Source: an uncultured Candidatus Saccharibacteria bacterium
Lineage (GTDB): Bacteria; Patescibacteriota; Minisyncoccia; Phycocordibacterales; JABMNX01
Length of the DNA: 35,454 nucleotides
Direction of reading: 5' to 3'
NCBI GenBank assembly: GCA_964625905.1
Contig: CAZVBS010000003.1
Location: forward strand, 1-35,454
The position numbers and the translations under genes are program-made. Below the pieces are notes generated by a model. The model saw only the letters and a list, made by a program, of their open reading frames with translations. It made no database searches and had not been told where the DNA came from. Within the stretch, counting starts at the first letter, position 1, and each line of letters starts with the position of its first letter. This document shows, in pieces, positions 7,731 through 33,778 of the stretch.

Positions 7731-7766
7731 AAATTAAACGGCTGGAGTACTCCAGCCGTTTAATTT
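7731..7766. repeat. Perfect 36-bp palindrome (AAACGGCTGGAGTACTCCAGCCGTTT family, copy 1)
   Basis: AAATTAAACGGCTGGAGTACTCCAGCCGTTTAATTT; core identical to the copy at 33300-33339. Confidence 0.9.
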
Positions 7767-9759: not shown

Positions 9760-10833
9760 TTAAGTAATTATACCTCCGCCAATACACTCATTCCCATCAT
9801 ATATAACTAAAGATTGTCCACGAGCTAGTCCATGTTGAGGTTCTTTAAATATAACCTTCTCTCCTCCTATTTTACATGGATAAAGCTCCCCACGGTGTCT
9901 AATACGTGCTTGGTACTCTTTTTCACTATTTTTTCCATTTGCTGGTGCTTTTGTTATCCAGTTAGTTTGCTCTAGTAAGATTTCTTTTTTATTAAAATCC
10001 ACATCATTTGGCTTATGGGAAACGGTGATGGTATTTTCTTTTATATCTTTACTTACAATATAGTACGGCTTTCTGTCTGTATTTTTCTCAGAGATTGTAA
10101 AACCATGACGTTGTCCAACGGTATAGATTTCTGCACCACTATGAGTACCAACAACATCTCCTTTAGTATTAAATACATTACCCTTTTTCAGGTCTATGTA
10201 ATGACCAAGAAACTCTTCAAGGTCTACATGACCTAAAAAACAGATTCCTTGGCTATCTTTTTTATCTGCAGTTAATAAGTCATATTTCTTTGCTAATTTT
10301 CTAACTTTATCTTTTTTAAACCCGCCAACTGGAAACAGTACTGAATTAAGTTCTTTTTGTGTTAACGTCCATAAGAAATATGACTGGTCTTTATTCTTAT
10401 CTTCTCCCTGAAGTAGTTTGAACTCGTTATTACTCACTTCTTTAACTTGCGCGTAATGACCTGTTGCGATATAGTCTGCACCCTCTTTCTTAGCAAACTC
10501 CATAAAGCTTCCAAACTTAACGTACTTATTACACATAACATCAGGGTTCGGTGTCCGCCCTTTTTTATACTCAGAGATCATATAGTCTGCCACTTCTTTC
10601 TTGTACTCCTTTTCAAGGTCTAGAGTTAGAAATGGTATGTCGAGACGTACGCAAACACGCATAGCATCTGTTCTTTCCTTTTCCCATTCACAATCTAAGA
10701 AGTCAGGTTGCCATACTTTAATAAAGACTCCAACGACGTTATATCCAACGTCTTTAAGAAGCGCAGCAGAAACAGATGAGTCTACCCCGCCACTAACTCC
10801 AATATACACTGTTTTTTCTTTATTTTTTTTCAT
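9760..10833 (-). CDS. mnmA: tRNA 2-thiouridine(34) synthase
   Basis: SGGVDSS, TPNPDVMCN, ATGHYA, KDQSYFL, DSQGICF and GQR motifs. Start set at the ATG of MKKNKEK. Confidence 0.97.
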   Translation of the reverse strand: MKKNKEKTVYIGVSGGVDSSVSAALLKDVGYNVVGVFIKVWQPDFLDCEWEKERTDAMRVCVRLDIPFLTLDLEKEYKKEVADYMISEYKKGRTPNPDVMCNKYVKFGSFMEFAKKEGADYIATGHYAQVKEVSNNEFKLLQGEDKNKDQSYFLWTLTQKELNSVLFPVGGFKKDKVRKLAKKYDLLTADKKDSQGICFLGHVDLEEFLGHYIDLKKGNVFNTKGDVVGTHSGAEIYTVGQRHGFTISEKNTDRKPYYIVSKDIKENTITVSHKPNDVDFNKKEILLEQTNWITKAPANGKNSEKEYQARIRHRGELYPCKIGGEKVIFKEPQHGLARGQSLVIYDGNECIGGGIIT

Positions 10834-19283: not shown

Positions 19284-20381
19284 CTATATTCTAAACTCGA
19301 TTATGTCGCCATCTTTTACAACATATTGCTTTCCTTCTGTTCGCACGAATCCTTTGTCTCTGGCTACTGCGTATGACTGCGCCTCTATCAGCTTTTCATA
19401 AGAAACTACGTCAGCACGTATAAACTTATCCTTAAAGTCTGAGTGAATTGCACTCCCTGCTTCTGGAGCAGTACTACCTTTAAGTACTGTCCATGCCCTT
19501 GTTTCATCCTCTCCTGTTGTAAAGTATGTAATTAAATTCAACAATATATAACTTGTCTTAATAAATAAACTTATACCGTCTTCTACAACACCAAACTCCC
19601 TTAAGAACTCTTCTCTGTCATCTTCAGACACATCTTTAAGTTCATGTTCTACTCCTGCATCTATAATTACATACTGTGAATCAGATTCTTCTATAAATTG
19701 CATTAACTTTTCATATCTATCTCCGTTCTCTTCATCAATATTAATAGCGTTAGCTTTCTTATTAAAAACATACAACATCGGCTTCATGGTCAAAAGATGG
19801 AGTCCTTTTATTACTTCTGAATCTTTTTCATCAAGTTCAGTTTCTCGAGCGAGTTTACCTTCTTCTAATTTCTGTAAAACTTTAGTAGCAACATCGCGCT
19901 CTTTCACTGCATCCTTATCTCCTCTTTTTACATCACGTTCTATTGAAGAAAGTCGTTTCGTGACAGTCTGCATGTCTGCCATGATAAGCTCCAAATTGAT
20001 TACTGTAATGTCATCAATAGGGCTAATACCTCCGTGCACATGCATTATGTCTGCGTCCTCAAAAAGCCGAACAACGTGCGCAATAGCATCCACTTCACGT
20101 ATATTAGAAAGGAACTTATTACCAAGACCTTCGCCTTCCGCAGCTCCTTTCACAAGCCCCGCGATATCTACAAACTCTATTGCTGTTGGTATAGTTTTTT
20201 TTGACTCAGATAAACGGCTGAGGCACTCCAGCCGTTTATCTGGCACAGCTACAACACCAACCGATGGGTCAATAGTACAAAATGGAAAATTCTCCGCTGG
20301 TACAGAGCGCTTTGTTAAAGCATTAAATAATGTAGACTTACCTACGTTGGGTAGACCTACTATACCGATTGAAAGTGACAT
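19284..20381 (-). CDS. ychF: Redox-regulated ATPase YchF
   Basis: GIVGLPNVGKSTLFNALT, NFPFCTI, DIAGLV and C-terminal TGS (ETRAWT, GKQYVVKDGD). Likely start is MSLSIGIVG at 20381. Confidence 0.97.
   Translation of the reverse strand: MSLSIGIVGLPNVGKSTLFNALTKRSVPAENFPFCTIDPSVGVVAVPDKRLECLSRLSESKKTIPTAIEFVDIAGLVKGAAEGEGLGNKFLSNIREVDAIAHVVRLFEDADIMHVHGGISPIDDITVINLELIMADMQTVTKRLSSIERDVKRGDKDAVKERDVATKVLQKLEEGKLARETELDEKDSEVIKGLHLLTMKPMLYVFNKKANAINIDEENGDRYEKLMQFIEESDSQYVIIDAGVEHELKDVSEDDREEFLREFGVVEDGISLFIKTSYILLNLITYFTTGEDETRAWTVLKGSTAPEAGSAIHSDFKDKFIRADVVSYEKLIEAQSYAVARDKGFVRTEGKQYVVKDGDIIEFRI
20207..20242. repeat. Intragenic copy of the AAACGGCTG..CAGCCGTTT palindrome within ychF
   Basis: CAGATAAACGGCTG-AGGCACTC-CAGCCGTTTATCTG with 14-bp perfect arms. 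Confidence 0.8.
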
Positions 20382-23688: not shown

Positions 23689-23726
23689 TAATAAAAACGC
23701 CCAGTATAACGTGGGCGTTTTTATTA
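23689..23726. terminator. Bidirectional terminator-like hairpin
   Basis: TAATAAAAACGCCCA-gtataacg-TGGGCGTTTTTATTA. Confidence 0.75.
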
Positions 23727-24707: not shown

Positions 24708-24875
24708 AAGATTTTACTTATTTAATAAAAATTTTTAATCTAGTCTGCAACCTATTTGCCCAAGAGCATAGCGTGAAAAGTGCTAAATGCACTTTGCAAG
24801 ACCTTTAGAGGTATTCTTGAGCTTTGTGAAAAGAATATCCTAAAGGCTGAAACAACACCAACGTGTTGTTTCAGA

Positions 24876-24911
24876 AGGTTGTCGATATTTTGAAAAAATA
24901 TCATACAATCT
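24876..24911. repeat. Degenerate copy of repeat module A
   Basis: AGGTTGTCGATATTTTGAAAAAATATC; the centre is inverted relative to TTTTTTCAAAA in the other copies. Confidence 0.6.
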
Positions 24912-25001
24912 GAACAGAATCTGTAAGATTTACAGTTCCTGTAAGGAATGGTTGCAAACAGCAGTGCCCTGTGAGTATAACCTCTTTTACTGCACTATAA
25001 C

Positions 25002-25391: not shown

Positions 25392-25477
25392 ATTTTAAAA
25401 ACTTGCTGATTTAATTTCCACTAATATTAGTTTGTATTATACCGTTAAAATCTTTAATATAAAACAGAGTTGTTAAG

Positions 25478-25699
25478 TTGTTGTGGATACCCGTTATTAA
25501 GTATATTTCTTCGTTTCACTCGAAATCTACTAAGTGCGCTCAAAGCTATGCCCGGCTCGTGGTTTCTCGTTATCACTCGAAACTTCACTCCGCCTTCCAC
25601 AACTGTTAAAAATGATGCTAATGCATCATTTTTAACATTAAAATAAACAGCCAGAGTACGTTTTGCTGTTTAATTTCATGCTTTTTATAATTTGTGGAC
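25478..25699. repeat. Structured repeat cluster 1 (module B-like, module E, degenerate palindrome, TGTGGAC core)
   Basis: TAAGTATATT..AATCTACTAAGTGCGCTC shared with 33365-33408; CTCCG.CTTCCACAAC..AAAAATGATGC..GCATCATTTTTAACA (25588-25637) shared with 33577-33625; TCGTTTCACTC loops. Confidence 0.85.
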
Positions 25700-25704
25700 A
25701 ACTA

Positions 25705-25732
25705 TTGACTTAAGGTTGTTTTTCGATATAAT
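25705..25732 (+). promoter_or_regulatory. Sigma-70 promoter facing the 3' end of the NYN gene
   Basis: TTGACT, 16-nt spacer, TATAAT. Confidence 0.7.
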
Positions 25733-25736
25733 AACT

Positions 25737-25799
25737 ATGATCTTCGGATCAATTAACTTTATTGCTTAGGGGCTCCGAAAGGAGTCCTTTTGGCTTTTT
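25737..25799 (+). ncRNA. Putative ~60-nt small RNA convergent with the NYN gene
   Basis: UGAUC-UUCG-GAUCA hairpin at the predicted TSS, 16-nt linker, AGGGGCUCC-GAAA-GGAGUCCUU hairpin and U-rich tail. Confidence 0.6.
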
Positions 25800-26556
25800 A
25801 TTTATCCACTTTGTCCTTTATACTTTGTTCTAATTCTTTAGACCAACATGTAAATTCTCTTATTTTCTTAACATCAAAAATATGTACACCTGTAGCATCT
25901 AGTTCTGGTGAAACTTTCCCAGAAGTTGCAAATATCACCACTCTCTTACCATCTTCTGTAATTTGCTGAACAGGATCTGCAAAATCACTGTCTACACTCC
26001 ATATACAATAATTTTCTATATCGTTAGTATCGAAATCGCGCAACATATCGCGACCCATCTCAACATCAAAGTTACATTTTTTATCTTCAATATATTTTTG
26101 TCCTTTCTTGTTTATATCTTGCAGTTTTTTGTTTAAAAATGTAATTGTTGCTATATCAAATAATTCTAATAGTGGTTTCTTTATGAAGTCTTGAAGTAAT
26201 GCAGGTGAATTTTCCGATATACTGCTAGCATCAATCGATCGTCGCATTAACTTAACTGGTTTTGTTATAACATCATAACCAAAACGATTTAATTCTAAAA
26301 TTCCATCTTCAGATTTCTGATTCCCTTCAAGTGTGCCGGTGTAAATTTTTACAGACCTAACTGTATCAAAGGAATCAAAGAGTTGTTTGATCCGTTTAAG
26401 ATTAAAACTCCAACCAAGTTTATCCTGCCAATGAATAACGTTTGACCAATCTATGTATATATTTGTTGGCGCATCAAAAATATCTTCTAGCTCAGTAATT
26501 GTCTTAGAAAACATTTCAGCCAACCCTTCTATTCTTTTTGTTTTTGGAGTAAACAT
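25798..26556 (-). CDS. NYN-domain (LabA/DUF88, PIN-like) ribonuclease
   Basis: Acidic catalytic-type motifs IYIDWSNV, KCNFDVEMGRDM and WSVDSDF. Confidence 0.88.
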   Translation of the reverse strand: MFTPKTKRIEGLAEMFSKTITELEDIFDAPTNIYIDWSNVIHWQDKLGWSFNLKRIKQLFDSFDTVRSVKIYTGTLEGNQKSEDGILELNRFGYDVITKPVKLMRRSIDASSISENSPALLQDFIKKPLLELFDIATITFLNKKLQDINKKGQKYIEDKKCNFDVEMGRDMLRDFDTNDIENYCIWSVDSDFADPVQQITEDGKRVVIFATSGKVSPELDATGVHIFDVKKIREFTCWSKELEQSIKDKVDK

Positions 26557-26647
26557 AATTATTTAAAACCTACCTGAAGTATTTTAATTACTATAACACG
26601 ATATTGGAGCAAAAATTTACACAAAATACAAGCTAAAACAATGGGAA

Positions 26648-26679
26648 AATAAACGCCAAGGGTGCCCTTGGCGTTTATT
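26648..26679. repeat. Near-perfect 32-bp palindrome
   Basis: AATAAACGCCAAGGG-TG-CCCTTGGCGTTTATT. Confidence 0.8.
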
Positions 26680-26770
26680 AACGACGTAGAGTGAGTGAAA
26701 TTGTGAAAGTTTTACTTTCACAATTCCGAGTTGACCGCAGTGTCCGCAGACTGAGTTAATATGCAACCGA

Positions 26771-27011
26771 CCTGTTCGAGAGTGAAGCGATTGAGTACAG
26801 GTTGACGATATTTTTTCAAAATATCTAGCAACCTTTTCAAGTCTTGGACTTGGTCACAGTCGCTAAATATATTGATTCACTTCGTTCTCAATCTACTAAG
26901 CGATCCGACCCGGACTCGGCGACAAGCCTTCCTCGTACCTCGTCGTCTTGTATACTGCCTCCGTCTTTCAAGTCCTGTAATATATTTTGTTGTGGGGTCA
27001 AGTTTCTAAAT
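26771..27011. repeat. Structured repeat cluster 2 (modules A, B, C, D)
   Basis: A 26794-26843 matches 33662-33711 (48/50); B 26846-26900 matches 33347-33401 (52/55); GACTCGGCGACAAG shared; D TGGGGTCAAGTTTCTAAAT 26993-27011 identical to 33435-33453. Confidence 0.9.
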
Positions 27012-27822: not shown

Positions 27823-28446
27823 TTAGGACTGCCAGCTAGCCATTAATAAGTTGAAGTCAAAGATATCTACGTCTCCATCTCCGTCAGCATCACCCATAGC
27901 TTTCGTGGCACCTGAAGTTGTACCCCAGTTAGCCATTAGAACGTTGAAGTCAAAAATGTCGATTTGTCCGTCTTCGTTAAAGTCAGTAGCTTCTGTTGAT
28001 GGAGTGGAGATAATTCCACCTCCTCCTCCACCTCCACCACCACCTCCTCCGCCTGATGGAGGATTAATGGCATATGCGAAGACTATAATAGAAGATGATA
28101 TGTTGTTCGCATAACACGAGATTGCTTCAATAAGTAAGCTAGAGGAAACTTCAATAGCACTGCTGTAAGTGTTTCCAGATGAACATGAAGCTTCACTTCC
28201 GTCTGTTGTGTAGTGAATAGATTGTATGCCGCTAGCTCCGCTTAGGACGACGTTTTGTGTGGAAGTATACGTACCTGCATCTGGACTAGCTGAAGGTTGT
28301 TCTATAACCAATCCGGTTACGCCGTTGCCAGTACTCACACCCGTTTCTAAGGTACCAGTAACTTCAGAAGCAAAAGTTGGAGATGCCATCAAAAAGAACA
28401 GTATAAATGCTGAAAGATATTTCATATTGTTTTTAATTAAGGCCAT
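27823..28446 (-). CDS. Secreted protein: Fn3-associated/chitobiase-like domain, poly-Gly linker, dockerin-like C-terminus
   Basis: P.ASP.AGTY...V.L..IHYTTDGS; Gly run; tandem Ca-loops DFNEDGQIDIFDF and DADGDGDVDIFDF. Confidence 0.82.
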   Translation of the reverse strand: MALIKNNMKYLSAFILFFLMASPTFASEVTGTLETGVSTGNGVTGLVIEQPSASPDAGTYTSTQNVVLSGASGIQSIHYTTDGSEASCSSGNTYSSAIEVSSSLLIEAISCYANNISSSIIVFAYAINPPSGGGGGGGGGGGGGIISTPSTEATDFNEDGQIDIFDFNVLMANWGTTSGATKAMGDADGDGDVDIFDFNLLMASWQS

Positions 28447-31400
28447 TAGTTAGACTGTACTCCGTAACTTCCTGAATACGACCCTCCTGCACTTAATACA
28501 GGAACCTTCATCTCTACTATTACCTCAATTTGTCGCCCAGGTGTTCCCGCTTCTAAATCAGCGTCAAGTGTAATAACACTACTGTAGGTGTCAGCAGCGA
28601 GAATAGTAACCGCAGTCGTTGATGCTGAGTTAACTGATGCTTGTACAGTGTAGAAGCGAATATTGCCTGCCGCTGCGATAGAGTTGGCGCCACTAATGAA
28701 GTCAGAGAACTTCATTTGGAAATCTGTTTCATTAGTTGGAACAGTAACGTGGTATACCCAACTCCATCCGTTTGCGTATGTGTCATCTGCTGTTGCGTAT
28801 GTCTTCACTGCATCGATTCCAGTGACAACTAAATCTGCGCTGTCGTCAAAATCTGCAGTAACTTCATAGGATACAGTTATGTTTGCTGTGTCTCCAGTTG
28901 ATGAAGTAACAACAACATTGTATACATGCAAGCCAACTGTAATCGCATCTGAGTCGGACACAGCTGTAACAGTTGCGCTAGCTGTAACACTTGAGCCATT
29001 AACTGTAACGCTCGCTGCATCTGTAGTGTCAAACTGTAGTCCAGATAGGAACCGAGCTGTAGCTTCAGTGACTGTGTACGAAGATACGATTGTCGCTCCG
29101 TTAATAACAATAGTTGGAATAACAGGAGTTACTGCTGGGTCAACGACTATAATGGTTCGTGTTTCTTCTACTGCCAAGTTACCAGCTGTGTCCGAAACGT
29201 TGTAAGTAACAGTGTACGTTCCTGCATTTGCTGTATCAACAGTTCCAGAGCCTGCAACTGTTCCTAAATCACCGTCAACATCGTCACTTGCTGTTGCTCC
29301 TGGGTCTGTGTATGTGTCTCCAACAGTTAGAGTTAGTGGGTTTTGTCCGAGTAATGTTATAACGGGAGGTGTGTTGTCTACTCCAGTAGTAGTAAATGTG
29401 TTGTCACCAGAAGTTCCAACATTTGAGGATGCATCAAGTGATATAACCCTAAAGTGGTAGTTAGTACCCTCAGTAAGAGAAGTTAGGTCAACAGAGTGGC
29501 TCGTTACCATGTTGGCATCAACGGTAGTAAGAGTACCGTATGAAGAAGTTGTGCCGTACTCCACTTGTGATTTTGAAGCCTCATCAGTGTCCCAAGTAAT
29601 TGTAACTGTATCGGTACCTATTGCTGATACTTGAATATTGGTGATGATAGGTGCCGTTACATCACTACCTGCGACAAACTCTATTGTTCCGGAACCGGTT
29701 GCACTGCCTCCAACCTCTAGCGCAGTAACATTTACATTTCCTGTAATAGTATTGGTGATTGTCGTATCGGTGTCTCCGTCTGCTTCCATGGTAAGTAGAG
29801 TTGAGCCAAATGATGAACCATTGTCTCCGGTAAGGCTAACTCCGGTTGTCGTGTCATTTACTACCAAGTAATTCAATGCATCTCGTGCAGTTACCGTAAG
29901 CGTTGCAGGGTTATTTACCGCCTGCGAAGTTGGGTTAAAGTTTAGATCAAAGTAGTCAATAGGGTCGGTTGATACAAGGTCAGTAAGAGCGTCACTATTA
30001 TAGAATGGGCTGAACTTTACGTAACTAGTTTCCCCATCATCTACCGCTGGCCATACTGCAACACCCGATCCGCTTGGATTTGAATTTGCATTATATGGAC
30101 CAGTCGCATCTCCCCACCAGTTCATTGAAGCATCAAGTACCCCTGCACCAGTCGCTGCTAGAGCTGGATGTAATACAACACCTAGAGCAGAGTTGCTCAT
30201 CTTATTATTTGTTACAGTAATTGTCGCAATACTTGGGTTTGACTCAAAGAAGATTGCAACTTCGTCTATGTTCCCTTTGTGGTCAGTTAAATTGCTTATT
30301 GTGTTCCCTGTAACAACAGCACTTGGCGTGTCATTTTCAAGACCGATACCGTGCGCCCAAAGACCTTCAAGTGTGCTAATGATGTTATTAGTAATTTGTA
30401 ATCCAAGTATTGCATTGTGATTTGCCAAGATACCATATGCACCTCGTCCAGCACTCCATGCTGCTGTGGACGCAAATACATTACTTATGTCGTTACCATC
30501 TATCACCACTCCGGAGAAATTGTTTGTGCTTGGTGAAGAATCGCCAAGGAATATTCCCTTAGCGCTAGTTCCACTACCAGCTACAAGTGTCAAGTTACCA
30601 ATGTTTGTGATTGTGTTGTTAGATATAGTTAGGTTAGTCACATCTACAGAGCTACTTTTTACATACACACCTTGTGCTGATCCTGAAGCGAGAGTTGTAC
30701 CAATATTTTGTATTGTATTATTTGTAATTGTAAGATCGTTAACGTCAGTTGCTTGAATTCCGTATCCAGCTGTTGGATTCTCGATGGTCATTCCGTCTAT
30801 GGTAACTCCATCAACAGTAACCTTAAGAGCCGTACCTCCGGGCGCAGTAAGCACTGCCCCACTATTACCTTGGATTGTTACATCTTGGTCAACTATCACA
30901 TTCTCAGAATAGGAGCCTGATGCAACATTTATTTCTGTGATTCCGCTAACCCAAGCGTCAATTGCTCCTTGGATAGTTCCAAAGTCTGGAGTTCCTGTTT
31001 GAGCAACAGTAAGAATTCCATCAGTATCTACTACAAAGTCCTCAGAATCTTCATCTATATTCCCTGCCAAGTCTGTTGCTTTAAATGTCACAGTTTGTCT
31101 ACCGTCAACTAATGTTAATGTCTGAGGGGAAGTACAGCTTGGTAAGTCTGTGTACGCTCCCGTGCCAATTTTGTAAGCACACGTATCTAGATTCGTGTCA
31201 GTTGCAACAAAAGTAAATGCGACATTCCCTGCTACATCGTGTACTACCAAGTCAGTAGTTGGGTCACTAATAGCCATTGATGGACTTACTGTGTCTACGA
31301 AGATATTATATGGCACAAGCGTTTCCGTGGAGGTGTTACCAGCTTCGTCCTCAAAGTTGATTTTTACTTTATATTCGCCGTCTGGAGCGTACACTGCACC

Positions 31401-32963
31401 ACCAGTTTCGTACCCATCCCACCGCTTCATTACATAAGCATCGAAACTTAAGATACTAGTATAGTATCTCGTTGCTGTTCCATCATCACAAACACCGTCT
31501 GCTTCTTCACAAATATAGATTCGTGTGTATTTAACTGGCTCGTTCGCTGTAATATCAATTTTTGCGTTATCAGTGTTTGAGTTAAAGAATGTGTCTACTG
31601 TAGCGTCGTCGAGTTCGTACGAGAGCACGCTCGGAGCTGTGTTATCTACCAAAATTGTATTGTTACTTTCTACAGGATTGTTATTTCCTGCAAGGTCTTC
31701 TGCATCAATAGTGATTGTTGCAGTACCATCACCACCATCGGTAACTGTCCAAGCGTATGTCCATACCAAACCTGAACCAGTCATGGTTACGGCGGAAACA
31801 TCCCCCGTACCGTCAACATCGATTGAGATTTTTGGATCGTTTACAGTTGTATCAAGCGCTTCGTTAAAAAATGTTGCCGTAATAGTCACAAGATCAGTAT
31901 CTTTTACCGGTCCATTGTTTGAATACGTAATAGCAACTTCTGGTTCTACAGTGTCACCGGTTACTGGCTGTGTGATTGAGCCGCCACTAAGTTCATTGTC
32001 AGCAGCATCTTTAATGGTGCCACCAACTAAGTAGGCAACAAATATTTCATCAGCTCCATTCTTTAGCCACTCCATGTCAGTTGCTTCATCAAGCGTTACT
32101 GTCAATACCTTGGTTGAATAAGAGAAGTTCGCATTTGTAAGACTTAGTGTGACACCACCTGAACCCTTCTTAAATACAAGTTCGTTGGCTGACCACATAC
32201 TGTCAACTACAACCACTTCTTCGTCAAAGGTAACTACAATAGTGTCGCCTGCACCTTGAATAGTTGTTCCGGTAAGTCCAATCATTCCAGGAGCGGTATT
32301 GTCAGTGTTGAGTAGTCCTACAAGTTCATACCCAATATTTCCTGCATTATCTGTTGCTTTTACACAAAGGTAATCGTCATGGTCGCCAATAATGTCAAAG
32401 TCGTTTCCTGAAGTAAAGGCTATATTTATAGTGTCTCCGACGTTACAAACATTATCTCCACTAAAGCCATATTCCTGAGAAGCTATGCCACTTTCGTTTG
32501 CAGGGACAGTCTCAGCTACGGTCACATTTATGGTATCGGTCTGTACTGGCCCAGTATCTGTGCCGTTGTTTACAGTAAATATAGGAGCCGTGTTGTCTAC
32601 TGTAAAATTAGATGCGCTTACATCATCGATAACACCGTCTGTTACCTTGATTTTATAGACACTCCCATCTGGAGTACCAGTAGTATCCCACGAGTAAGTG
32701 CCATCTGTTGCGTTAACACCACTGATGAGGTCTGAATAACTACTACCACCATTGGATGAAAGTGCAATTGATATCGTATCACCTGAATCGGCTGTAGCAG
32801 TCCATGTAACACTTTGTGTTCCTGCCAAGTACTCACCTCCCGTTGGAGCTGTAAGAGAAAACGAAGTAACTGTCGCAAATGCAATCGAAATTAATAAAGT
32901 AAACAAAAAAATTGCCACTGCAATTACTGCAAGTGACTTTCCGAAATAAGTTCTAGTATTCAT
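28446..32963 (-). CDS. Giant secreted adhesin/surface protein (Ig-like repeats, beta-helix, FN3, DUF5011-like)
   Basis: 1505 aa; signal peptide; repeated D.AGN/DNTAP Ig boundaries; TIQGAIDA and ITNNTI.N beta-helix repeats; TITWDTDE..QVEYGTT..YHFRV (FN3); PPVITLLG.NP...YTDPGATA.DD.DG. Confidence 0.88.
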   Translation of the reverse strand: MNTRTYFGKSLAVIAVAIFLFTLLISIAFATVTSFSLTAPTGGEYLAGTQSVTWTATADSGDTISIALSSNGGSSYSDLISGVNATDGTYSWDTTGTPDGSVYKIKVTDGVIDDVSASNFTVDNTAPIFTVNNGTDTGPVQTDTINVTVAETVPANESGIASQEYGFSGDNVCNVGDTINIAFTSGNDFDIIGDHDDYLCVKATDNAGNIGYELVGLLNTDNTAPGMIGLTGTTIQGAGDTIVVTFDEEVVVVDSMWSANELVFKKGSGGVTLSLTNANFSYSTKVLTVTLDEATDMEWLKNGADEIFVAYLVGGTIKDAADNELSGGSITQPVTGDTVEPEVAITYSNNGPVKDTDLVTITATFFNEALDTTVNDPKISIDVDGTGDVSAVTMTGSGLVWTYAWTVTDGGDGTATITIDAEDLAGNNNPVESNNTILVDNTAPSVLSYELDDATVDTFFNSNTDNAKIDITANEPVKYTRIYICEEADGVCDDGTATRYYTSILSFDAYVMKRWDGYETGGAVYAPDGEYKVKINFEDEAGNTSTETLVPYNIFVDTVSPSMAISDPTTDLVVHDVAGNVAFTFVATDTNLDTCAYKIGTGAYTDLPSCTSPQTLTLVDGRQTVTFKATDLAGNIDEDSEDFVVDTDGILTVAQTGTPDFGTIQGAIDAWVSGITEINVASGSYSENVIVDQDVTIQGNSGAVLTAPGGTALKVTVDGVTIDGMTIENPTAGYGIQATDVNDLTITNNTIQNIGTTLASGSAQGVYVKSSSVDVTNLTISNNTITNIGNLTLVAGSGTSAKGIFLGDSSPSTNNFSGVVIDGNDISNVFASTAAWSAGRGAYGILANHNAILGLQITNNIISTLEGLWAHGIGLENDTPSAVVTGNTISNLTDHKGNIDEVAIFFESNPSIATITVTNNKMSNSALGVVLHPALAATGAGVLDASMNWWGDATGPYNANSNPSGSGVAVWPAVDDGETSYVKFSPFYNSDALTDLVSTDPIDYFDLNFNPTSQAVNNPATLTVTARDALNYLVVNDTTTGVSLTGDNGSSFGSTLLTMEADGDTDTTITNTITGNVNVTALEVGGSATGSGTIEFVAGSDVTAPIITNIQVSAIGTDTVTITWDTDEASKSQVEYGTTSSYGTLTTVDANMVTSHSVDLTSLTEGTNYHFRVISLDASSNVGTSGDNTFTTTGVDNTPPVITLLGQNPLTLTVGDTYTDPGATASDDVDGDLGTVAGSGTVDTANAGTYTVTYNVSDTAGNLAVEETRTIIVVDPAVTPVIPTIVINGATIVSSYTVTEATARFLSGLQFDTTDAASVTVNGSSVTASATVTAVSDSDAITVGLHVYNVVVTSSTGDTANITVSYEVTADFDDSADLVVTGIDAVKTYATADDTYANGWSWVYHVTVPTNETDFQMKFSDFISGANSIAAAGNIRFYTVQASVNSASTTAVTILAADTYSSVITLDADLEAGTPGRQIEVIVEMKVPVLSAGGSYSGSYGVQSN

Positions 32964-33201: not shown

Positions 33202-33299
33202 TCGTAAAAACAATCTCGAAAGAGCTTGTCACTTATGTCAATATTTGCTCAATTTGCTTAAACATACAAAAGAAACCAGGTCAGCCACCATTTTTGTCA

Positions 33300-33339
33300 T
33301 TAAAATAAACGGCTGGAGTACTCCAGCCGTTTATTTTAA
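33300..33339. repeat. Perfect 40-bp palindrome (AAACGGCTGGAGTACTCCAGCCGTTT family)
   Basis: TTAAAATAAACGGCTGGAGTACTCCAGCCGTTTATTTTAA. Confidence 0.9.
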
Positions 33340-33778
33340 CCCGATAGGACTTGGTCACAGTCGCTAAGTATATTGATTCACTACGTTCTTAATCTACTAA
33401 GTGCGCTCGACCCCGACTCGGCGACAAGTTCTTATGGGGTCAAGTTTCTAAATTCGCTACGCTCATTAAGAACTTCCTAGCTCTGCACTTGATTATGTAA
33501 TTCGTTTCACTCATAACATAATCTACGCCTGGACTCATGGTTTTATTTTCTAGTAAAAATGAAAAATAAAACATCGCTCCGTCTTCCACAACGAAAAAAA
33601 TGATGCATTGGCATCATTTTTAACAGTTGTGGACCCGACAGGACTTGAACATTACATGTTCAGTACAGGTTGTCGATATTTTTTCAAAATATCTGGCAAC
33701 CTTTTCAAGTCCGAGCCACACCCAGCCAGCACAAAAATACCCCCGTAAAACACGGGGGTTATTTTAATGCTGTGGACC
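33339..33778. repeat. Structured repeat cluster 3 (modules B, C, D, E, tRNA-like end, A, hairpin)
   Basis: Contains all modules seen in clusters 1 and 2, in a different order; TGTGGACC at 33628 and 33771. Confidence 0.88.
33629..33650 (-). other. tRNA/tmRNA 3'-end fragment (att-like)
   Basis: Minus strand GTTCAAGTCCTGTCGGGTCCAC reads as T-loop, 3' T-stem, acceptor strand and discriminator A; no 5' half is present. Confidence 0.6.

Follow-up and report, generated by a model that had tools for sequence, protein, structure and literature searches.

Among the RNA-controlled toxins of bacteria, txpA/RatA of Bacillus subtilis is one of the type I pairs that overlap at their 3' ends. Two others, bsrG/SR4 and yonT/SR6, are described, in the available parts of the reports on them (PMC3834814, PMC5848175), as membrane-peptide toxins of fewer than 60 amino acids (aa) opposed by a convergent small RNA (sRNA), which is made from its own promoter and overlaps the toxin mRNA at its 3' end, with the terminator stem-loops of the two transcripts facing each other. 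Type III systems (ToxIN, CptIN and TenpIN) follow another plan: as far as the accessible portions of two accounts go (PMC5086642, PMC3475682), an endoribonuclease has a dedicated structured RNA as its partner, encoded as tandem repeats upstream on the same strand, there is no protein antitoxin, and the systems are linked to phage defence, phage PhiTE carrying a pseudo-ToxI RNA of its own. Here we describe a locus that shares traits with both, found in a stretch of 35,454 nucleotides (nt) from an uncultured Candidatus Saccharibacteria bacterium; this stretch, which we call the window, is contig 3 of a 687-kb genome assembled in 73 contigs. Genomes of ~0.7 Mb are usual for Patescibacteria (the Candidate Phyla Radiation). 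Positions 25705-26556 of the window are a self-contained two-gene module that consists of an NYN endoribonuclease gene and a structured RNA gene of ~60 nt, the latter belonging to a family that we name R1.

The module resembles the B. subtilis pairs in its predicted convergent sRNA, which has its own promoter and would overlap the 3' end of the message, and in terminator stem-loops that face each other. It departs from them in its protein, a 252-aa globular NYN enzyme where type I toxins are small hydrophobic peptides, and in the near-invariant sequence of the R1 RNA, which goes beyond what complementarity needs. SymE/SymR of E. coli is alike in that an antisense RNA controls a nuclease-linked toxin and not a membrane peptide, but SymR overlaps the 5' end and start codon of its target, and SymE is unrelated to NYN. 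With type III systems the module shares an endoribonuclease, a dedicated structured RNA, the lack of a protein antitoxin, a probable link to phage defence and a copy of the RNA in a phage; its fold, however, is NYN and not ToxN/AbiQ-type, and its RNA is single (81/83 loci), downstream and convergent.

Nuclease toxins can also be embedded in a type I restriction-modification (R-M) operon, as PrrC is. A survey of the PIN-like domains notes, in its available part, that PIN-like toxins are found in operons of this kind where "antitoxin elements are missing" (Matelska et al. 2017, PMC5499597). Our module likewise stands between hsdM and hsdS of type I R-M operons in four loci (L028, L035, L064 and L079) and has no protein antitoxin; it differs in that a conserved RNA gene takes the place of the "missing" partner and in that about 9/10 of the loci are not beside R-M genes. 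In the literature within our reach, which did not extend to subscription journals and supplementary files, we found no report of an NYN nuclease with an RNA partner.

The convergent RNA gene and its NYN partner

A first-pass annotation of the window, made from its letters alone, had proposed an NYN nuclease gene with a convergent sRNA that starts from a near-consensus TTGACT-N16-TATAAT promoter and comprises a UUCG hairpin at the predicted start, a 16-nt linker and a GAAA hairpin whose U-rich tail ends at the NYN stop codon. This earlier reading of an NYN and noncoding RNA module is supported overall, with a revision of the linker, and the parts lie in the window as follows.

25693..25701, minus strand: DnaA-box-like 9-mer TTGTCCACA, one mismatch to TTATCCACA, 4 nt upstream of the -35 hexamer
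25705..25732, plus strand: sigma-70-type promoter of the sRNA, TTGACT, 16-nt spacer, TATAAT; 11/12 consensus positions
25738..25799, plus strand: predicted sRNA of ~60 nt, R1 family; covariance-model match 25725-25800, 72.9 bits, with the start placed from the promoter
25738..25751, plus strand: hairpin 1, ugauc-UUCG-gauca, at about the expected transcription start
25752..25763, plus strand: single-stranded linker of 12 nt, AUUAACUUUAUU; family consensus AWWUCUARW
25764..25794, plus strand: hairpin 2, the terminator, with an outer GC/GC clamp, a U.U internal loop, a 9-bp stem and a GAAA loop; core 25768-25789
25795..25799, plus strand: terminator U-run, its last bases being the NYN stop codon on the other strand; tail TTGGCTTTTT
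25798..26556, minus strand: NYN-domain nuclease gene, 252 aa, from the list of open reading frames (ORFs) and Pfam; catalytic-type residues intact

The NYN stop codon, the complement of 25798-25800, lies at the end of the terminator U-run, and the plus strand at 25768-25789 has the nine pairs, GAAA loop and tail of an intrinsic (Rho-independent) terminator. The 16-nt linker of the annotation proved too long: the GC of its final GCUU pairs with an invariant GC downstream of the hairpin, so the linker has 12 nt and the second hairpin is longer, with a U.U internal loop. The 62-nt plus-strand RNA folds at -22.8 kcal/mol (z -3.75; 2/200 shuffles as good) and its complement at -12.0 kcal/mol (z -1.83). 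The window alone would not single the unit out, its two promoter-like sites of at least 11/12 (mean 1.8 in 40 Markov resamples) and two terminator-like sites (1.4 +/- 1.3 expected) both being at chance level; once comparative data are included, the unit lies, by sequence comparison, far beyond chance. Rfam 15 gave no match at gathering score anywhere in the window, and at permissive thresholds its sole overlap was with Histone3, on the other strand and at chance level (16.2 bits, the threshold being 34). On the comparative evidence the sRNA gene is real, and it is absent from Rfam 15.

The comparison rests on orthologues gathered by scanning one genome per species and keeping the best 80 of at least 481 relatives confirmed by tblastn; the record labels of the scanned relatives are mostly Patescibacteria, with some Omnitrophota, Acidobacteriota, Planctomycetota, Gammaproteobacteria and Syntrophales. 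In the first four genome loci, those of the window and three relatives, the antisense layout is common to all and the hairpin-1 stems differ. The R1 covariance model (77 positions, 15 pairs) matches 83/84 orthologous NYN loci at 41-86 bits, always on the opposite strand at the NYN 3' end, and the only miss, L085, is a contig that ends inside the NYN gene. Two tandem copies stand behind one NYN in L045 (1388-1555) and L070 (816-991), and two pairs of loci in the set are identical copies of each other. The promoter belongs to the family as well: a match of at least 10/12 is present in 50/83 R1 matches against 3/83 on the other strand, and the -10 hexamer stands at the same model position in 72/83.

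The covarying two-hairpin motif that the annotation had expected downstream of NYN homologues, along with a conserved promoter, is borne out by the R1 model alignment of 85 distinct rows, to which the structure counts refer. Paired cells amount to 98.7% against 85.4 +/- 0.5 in shuffles, and double-change cells number 201 against 45.9 +/- 11.6, with 0/500 shuffles as high; when the 3' partner is shifted by 1-3 columns, pairing falls to 60% or less. This alignment leans towards the structure because it was fitted to it, and a plain MAFFT alignment still shows compensatory changes in 11/15 pairs. Such changes affect 4/4 modelled pairs of hairpin 1 and 7/9 stem pairs of hairpin 2, whose GC clamp is invariant. 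Midway along hairpin 2 a G.U wobble, G25772.U25785 in the window, is kept in 81/85 rows, and the linker measures 11-12 nt in 62/85. The clamp, wobble, U.U loop and linker are near-invariant at ~50% protein identity, whether they overlap coding sequence (CDS) or not. The preference for stable tetraloops on one strand, noted in the window by the first-pass annotation, extends across the family, with GNRA or UNCG loops in 60/85 rows for hairpin 1 and 50/85 for hairpin 2, and 0 on the other strand. These loops, the kept wobble and an excess of G.U over A.C in the structure (130 G.U/U.G cells against 9 A.C/C.A) place the fold on the strand opposite NYN. A coding function for the sRNA was considered and set aside: an ATG ORF of at least eight codons occurs in only 18/85 rows, and the 10-codon ORF of the window, read by eye, is not conserved.

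The protein encoded opposite this RNA matches Pfam PF01936 (NYN, LabA-like) at 55.6 bits against a cut-off of 24.2 (E 1.1e-14). D36, N39, D164, E166, D189 and D191 are invariant in 60 orthologues, and we take D36, D164, E166, D189 and D191 to be acidic active-site residues of NYN. An AlphaFold model of the protein (predicted local distance difference test, pLDDT, 93.3) points to a PIN-like NYN fold: its best PDB match is the LabA-like 2qip (E 2.1e-6, target TM 0.73), followed by the MARF1 NYN domains 5yaa and 6fdl. The PADLOC matches, to 'NYN' (E 3.4e-8) and 'HEC-09', are weak. Domain family and fold are thus those of the LabA-like proteins (NYN.COG1432), which are very numerous in bacteria and which the 2017 survey, in its available part, lists as of unknown function (Matelska et al. 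2017, PMC5499597), and those of a CRISPR-associated bacterial NYN ribonuclease that the accessible portion of a preprint characterises as an Mn-dependent, sequence-nonspecific nuclease or trimmer of single-stranded RNA (Chi and White 2024). The present protein is set apart from both, as these sources describe them, by its candidate RNA partner, and its model shows two features of its own, paired helices at the N terminus and an insert near residues 100-150.

The RNA and the nuclease travel together. Full-length NYN orthologues (48-56% identity) are present in only 3/60 relatives and in 0/6 same-genus genomes, and among the 61 genomes strong R1 matches occur only in the four with a full-length NYN, adjoining the gene. 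Across the phylum, five of 151 genomes carry a full-length NYN, and the RNA adjoins it in all five. The sole exception is a sixth genome of the 151, G175, in which the RNA gene (68.9 bits; L108, 1998-2072) and its promoter are intact and NYN is reduced to its last 24 codons; the 257-nt fragment concerned is 90.7% identical to L050. This fragment sits between two copies of a ~50-nt direct repeat that also occurs in L050. Two weak R1 matches were seen among the 61 genomes, in G035 and G022; the one in G035 was rejected as an RNA gene, being the usual terminator, on the same strand, behind a 130-aa ORF that by eye resembles ribosomal protein L7/L12. By sequence search the RNA is thus strictly paired, occurring only beside this NYN subfamily, in agreement with the dedicated RNA of the first-pass annotation, and clustering of the flanking ORFs of the 84 loci revealed no second gene in common and no conserved protein partner.

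Viral records hold a few further copies. One 7-kb viral-contig record has NYN together with the RNA, and a looser viral pattern yielded five new loci, of which two have weak R1 matches (23-25 bits) and three none. A phage contig, L109 (33,962 bp, estimated 63% complete), has tape-measure and tail-fibre genes and no NYN in the record; it carries the R1 linker and hairpin 2 at 10729-10819 (48.7 bits), at the end of the late genes and with no canonical promoter at that place. This copy may mimic an antitoxin or be a scar of recombination.

The same layout recurs behind NYN genes whose RNAs R1 does not recognise. At a distant homologue in G063 and at paralogues of ~200 aa, a convergent promoter precedes a short hairpin RNA that runs up to the stop codon; R1 does not match at the G063 homologue, even with filters off, or beside the distant paralogues L009-L014. 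A fixed rule asked for an antisense terminator whose end lies within -20 to +55 nt of the stop codon and for a promoter of at least 9/12 located 25-110 nt upstream, and 14/26 distant paralogues pass it against 3/182 control genes; when at least 10/12 is asked of the promoter, the counts become 12/26 and 0/182. For one 200-aa NYN clade we built a second family, R2, from the best 80 of 307 confirmed metagenomic relatives. The R2 model matches 78/80 metagenome loci, the two misses having no downstream DNA, and all five genome loci of its clade, and it does not cross-match to the window or to other RNA types. Its alignment has 97.0% of cells paired and 167 double-change cells against 35.9 +/- 7.4, 12/13 pairs show compensatory changes, and its linkers are conserved too. 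RNA types track protein clades. By eye, further RNA types stand behind other NYN clades (L010, L117, L012 and L013; L126 and L130; L116 and L009); one of them runs hairpin, AGGGUnCUACAUCC, WAGGG-stem, U-run, and none is matched by R1 or R2. Judged from these alignments and layouts, the convergent arrangement is general among NYN clades, at least two RNA classes being supported by covariation and at least three further types being visible.

Both families also tend to carry a DnaA-box-like site, defined here as a 9-mer in either orientation, just upstream of the -35 hexamer, with at most one mismatch to TTATCCACA, which we assume as the consensus. It is found in 26/83 R1 matches (2.3% expected per 57 nt) and in 35/66 R2 loci (4% expected); among sites of at least 10/12 it accompanies 15/52 RNA promoters and 8/194 other promoter-like sites. 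The motif is not enriched across the window as a whole. Present in about a third to half of loci, this site may tie the supply of RNA to replication status.

Neighbouring genes and repeated elements

Apart from the four loci in which the module lies between hsdM and hsdS, it stands beside hsdS in L022, L075 and L084. The commonest Pfam families among the 149 nearest neighbours (81 loci) are those of R-M systems, Methylase_S (7), N6_Mtase (6) and ResIII (6), and the link to R-M genes is real but modest. A cluster of ORFs from 46 loci was rejected as a shared gene, its members being a shadow frame within the NYN gene. In 9/84 loci the gene directly upstream of NYN encodes a 70-aa KTSC-domain protein (PF13619, E 1.5e-21): L007 (1279-1494), L022, L024, L075, L087, L090, L092, L093 and L095.

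In the window, two features lie upstream of the NYN gene.

26558..26587, minus strand: weak promoter-like site upstream of NYN, TTAAAA, 18-nt spacer, AATAAT; a consensus match only, 9/12
26646..26679, no strand assigned: palindromic hairpin AAACGCCAAGG..CCTTGGCGTTT (repeat families D2 and I12), a member of a repeated hairpin family and the upstream border of the module

The hairpin at 26646-26679 is not picked up by the terminator rule applied to the window. It belongs to a set of palindromic hairpins, AAATAAACGGCTGGAGTACTCCAGCCGTTTAT and variants, located at gene ends (7731-7764, 20196-20239, 23690-23723, 26646-26679 and 33302-33335), which looks like a REP-like (repetitive extragenic palindromic) or two-way terminator family. 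Repeated intergenic elements at 24740-24920, 25470-25680, 26680-27000 and 33290-33720 flank the module and the neighbouring minus-strand genes. They share common blocks in permuted order, with GUUGUGGA...UCCACAAC closing a domain of ~125 nt; the minus-strand fold of the element at 25476-25612 has z -2.68, more partial copies are present on contigs 23 and 32, and Rfam has no match for them. Farther on, a 207-aa protein (27823-28446) with 13 consecutive glycines and a pair of dockerin-like repeats (repeat D9) adjoins a 1505-aa surface-type protein (28446-32963). Neither of the genes flanking the module, which were sought in five same-genus genomes to locate insertion boundaries, has a match there, and the region around the module therefore looks variable.

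Possible modes of action and significance

We consider it slightly better than an even proposition that the module is an RNA-controlled NYN system of toxin-antitoxin-like character, probably linked to defence, in which abundant RNA restrains the nuclease. The RNA would be made from its own strong promoter towards NYN and would terminate on the NYN stop codon. In one layer of control, the conserved linker and hairpin 2 would be recognised directly, most likely by the NYN protein, the RNA working like a type III antitoxin or a pseudo-substrate; in a second, the RNA would also act through its complementarity to the 3' end of the NYN mRNA, like the 3'-overlapping type I pairs of B. subtilis. Computation cannot separate the two layers, and we favour both acting together. 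We infer transcription, repression, toxicity, protein binding and DnaA input from sequence. Several toxin- or defence-like traits support this reading: the invariant acidic residues, the NYN fold, the patchy distribution, the R-M neighbourhood, the PADLOC matches and the orphan RNA copies.

Pure antisense control is the main rival, and although we regard it as unlikely it deserves serious weight. Here the RNA would act in cis, in type I fashion, by pairing with the 3' end of the NYN mRNA without any recognition by protein, and cutting of the duplex (for example by RNase III) or interference between converging polymerases would set NYN expression. The first-pass annotation had argued that the RNA barely overlaps the CDS and that protein binding was accordingly more plausible than antisense action; this argument is weak, as it ignores the 3' untranslated region, and in the family the CDS overlaps the RNA by 23-51 nt in 30/83 R1 matches, the stop codon falls within the last 1-6 nt of the match in 39/83, and CDS or stop codon overlaps the RNA in 69/83. 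A terminator-like site in the NYN sense lies inside the RNA gene in only 9/80 loci (71/80 have one in the RNA sense), so the NYN mRNA probably reads through the RNA gene and would be complementary to the RNA over its full length. Of all features, moreover, only the convergent 3' layout is kept across all RNA types, and SR4 and SR6 act in this manner according to the available parts of their descriptions (PMC3834814, PMC5848175). Complementarity is automatic in such a layout, however, so pure antisense control leaves the near-invariant clamp, the wobble and the linkers of R1 and R2 unexplained; its partner here would be a 252-aa enzyme and not a small membrane peptide, and the 3' end of the NYN mRNA on which it depends is itself only predicted. 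Clamp, wobble and linker are kept whether or not the CDS overlaps them, a pattern that supports sequence-specific reading of the RNA. Two negative results favour it as well: the RNA pairs with the translation start region of its own NYN no better than with non-cognate ones (-17.6 vs -17.0 kcal/mol, p 0.20), and outside the 3' overlap the linker pairs with its own mRNA no better than shuffled probes do (-12.2 vs -12.3, p 0.77).

The same conserved single-stranded linkers would suit a trans-acting regulator tied to DnaA and replication, with NYN devoted to its processing or turnover, or with the two forming a ribonucleoprotein that acts on other RNAs, and with no toxin logic at all. In its favour are the enrichment of DnaA-box-like sites at the RNA promoters of R1 and R2 alike, the RNA copies that are retained where NYN is missing, and a bacterial NYN that the accessible portion of a preprint reports as a non-specific trimmer of single-stranded RNA (Chi and White 2024). 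We nevertheless judge this alternative improbable: a patchy, accessory distribution fits a housekeeping regulator poorly, the linkage to R-M genes speaks against it, and no target was found, in comparisons that covered the cognate NYN mRNA. We give far less credence to a DNA-level element, such as a site through which the NYN cassette recombines or moves and which is read in the form of single-stranded hairpins. Going by record labels the cassette moves across phyla, and in G175 a lone 257-nt fragment that includes the RNA gene has survived, but a fixed-spacing promoter, strand-specific G.U pairs and GNRA loops are features of RNA, and no recombinase is conserved among the flanking ORFs and nearest neighbours of the NYN loci. 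Least credible of all is that nothing functional is present beyond a terminator for NYN or its neighbours and a chance promoter-like site. The single-window counts of promoters and terminators, at chance level, are what this would predict; it is already contradicted by the promoter position kept in 72/83 R1 matches, by a terminator that works on the strand opposite NYN, by the covariation of hairpin 1 and by the 0/182 control genes with such a unit at 10/12 or better.

Several observations weigh against the two-layer toxin-antitoxin-like reading that we prefer. The strict convergent 3' position, held across clades with unrelated RNAs, points to position-dependent antisense action or interference and not to protein binding, and the sole role of the conserved G.U and U.U might be to let the RNA form a strong hairpin where the complementary mRNA forms a weak one. 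The RNA is single copy and downstream, whereas type III antitoxins are upstream repeat arrays. Of the distant paralogues, 12/26 fail the fixed rule, four of these 12 showing the unit by eye; R-M genes flank only about a tenth of loci; G175 and the phage contribute one orphan RNA each, which recombination could have left behind; and known plasmids and a phage collection gave no match at E 1e-10 or better. The statistics overstate the case because related genomes are not independent.

A more ambitious proposition extends the preferred reading to the whole superfamily of single-domain NYN proteins in Patescibacteria and other phyla, which would be RNA-controlled toxins with clade-specific, co-diversified convergent sRNAs, each RNA serving as antisense and as protein-bound pseudo-substrate and each made from a DnaA-gated promoter. 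We hold this only tentatively and think it doubtful in its full form. What the comparison already offers is two RNA families, R1 and R2, that are absent from Rfam 15, and a testable logic for two NYN clades, and probably more, in which a covarying sRNA gene ending on the stop codon would hold a nuclease in check. The RNA is also a candidate for the "missing antitoxin" of nuclease genes inside type I R-M operons, and its presence here indicates that such modules are kept in genomes of ~0.7 Mb. Should the DnaA link be upheld, control of the toxin would be connected to replication status. If the wider proposition is true, these modules would blend a type I layout with type III action: loss of DnaA activity, upon replication arrest or phage takeover, would stop the supply of RNA and release the nuclease, and phages would be expected to counter with an RNA copy of their own.

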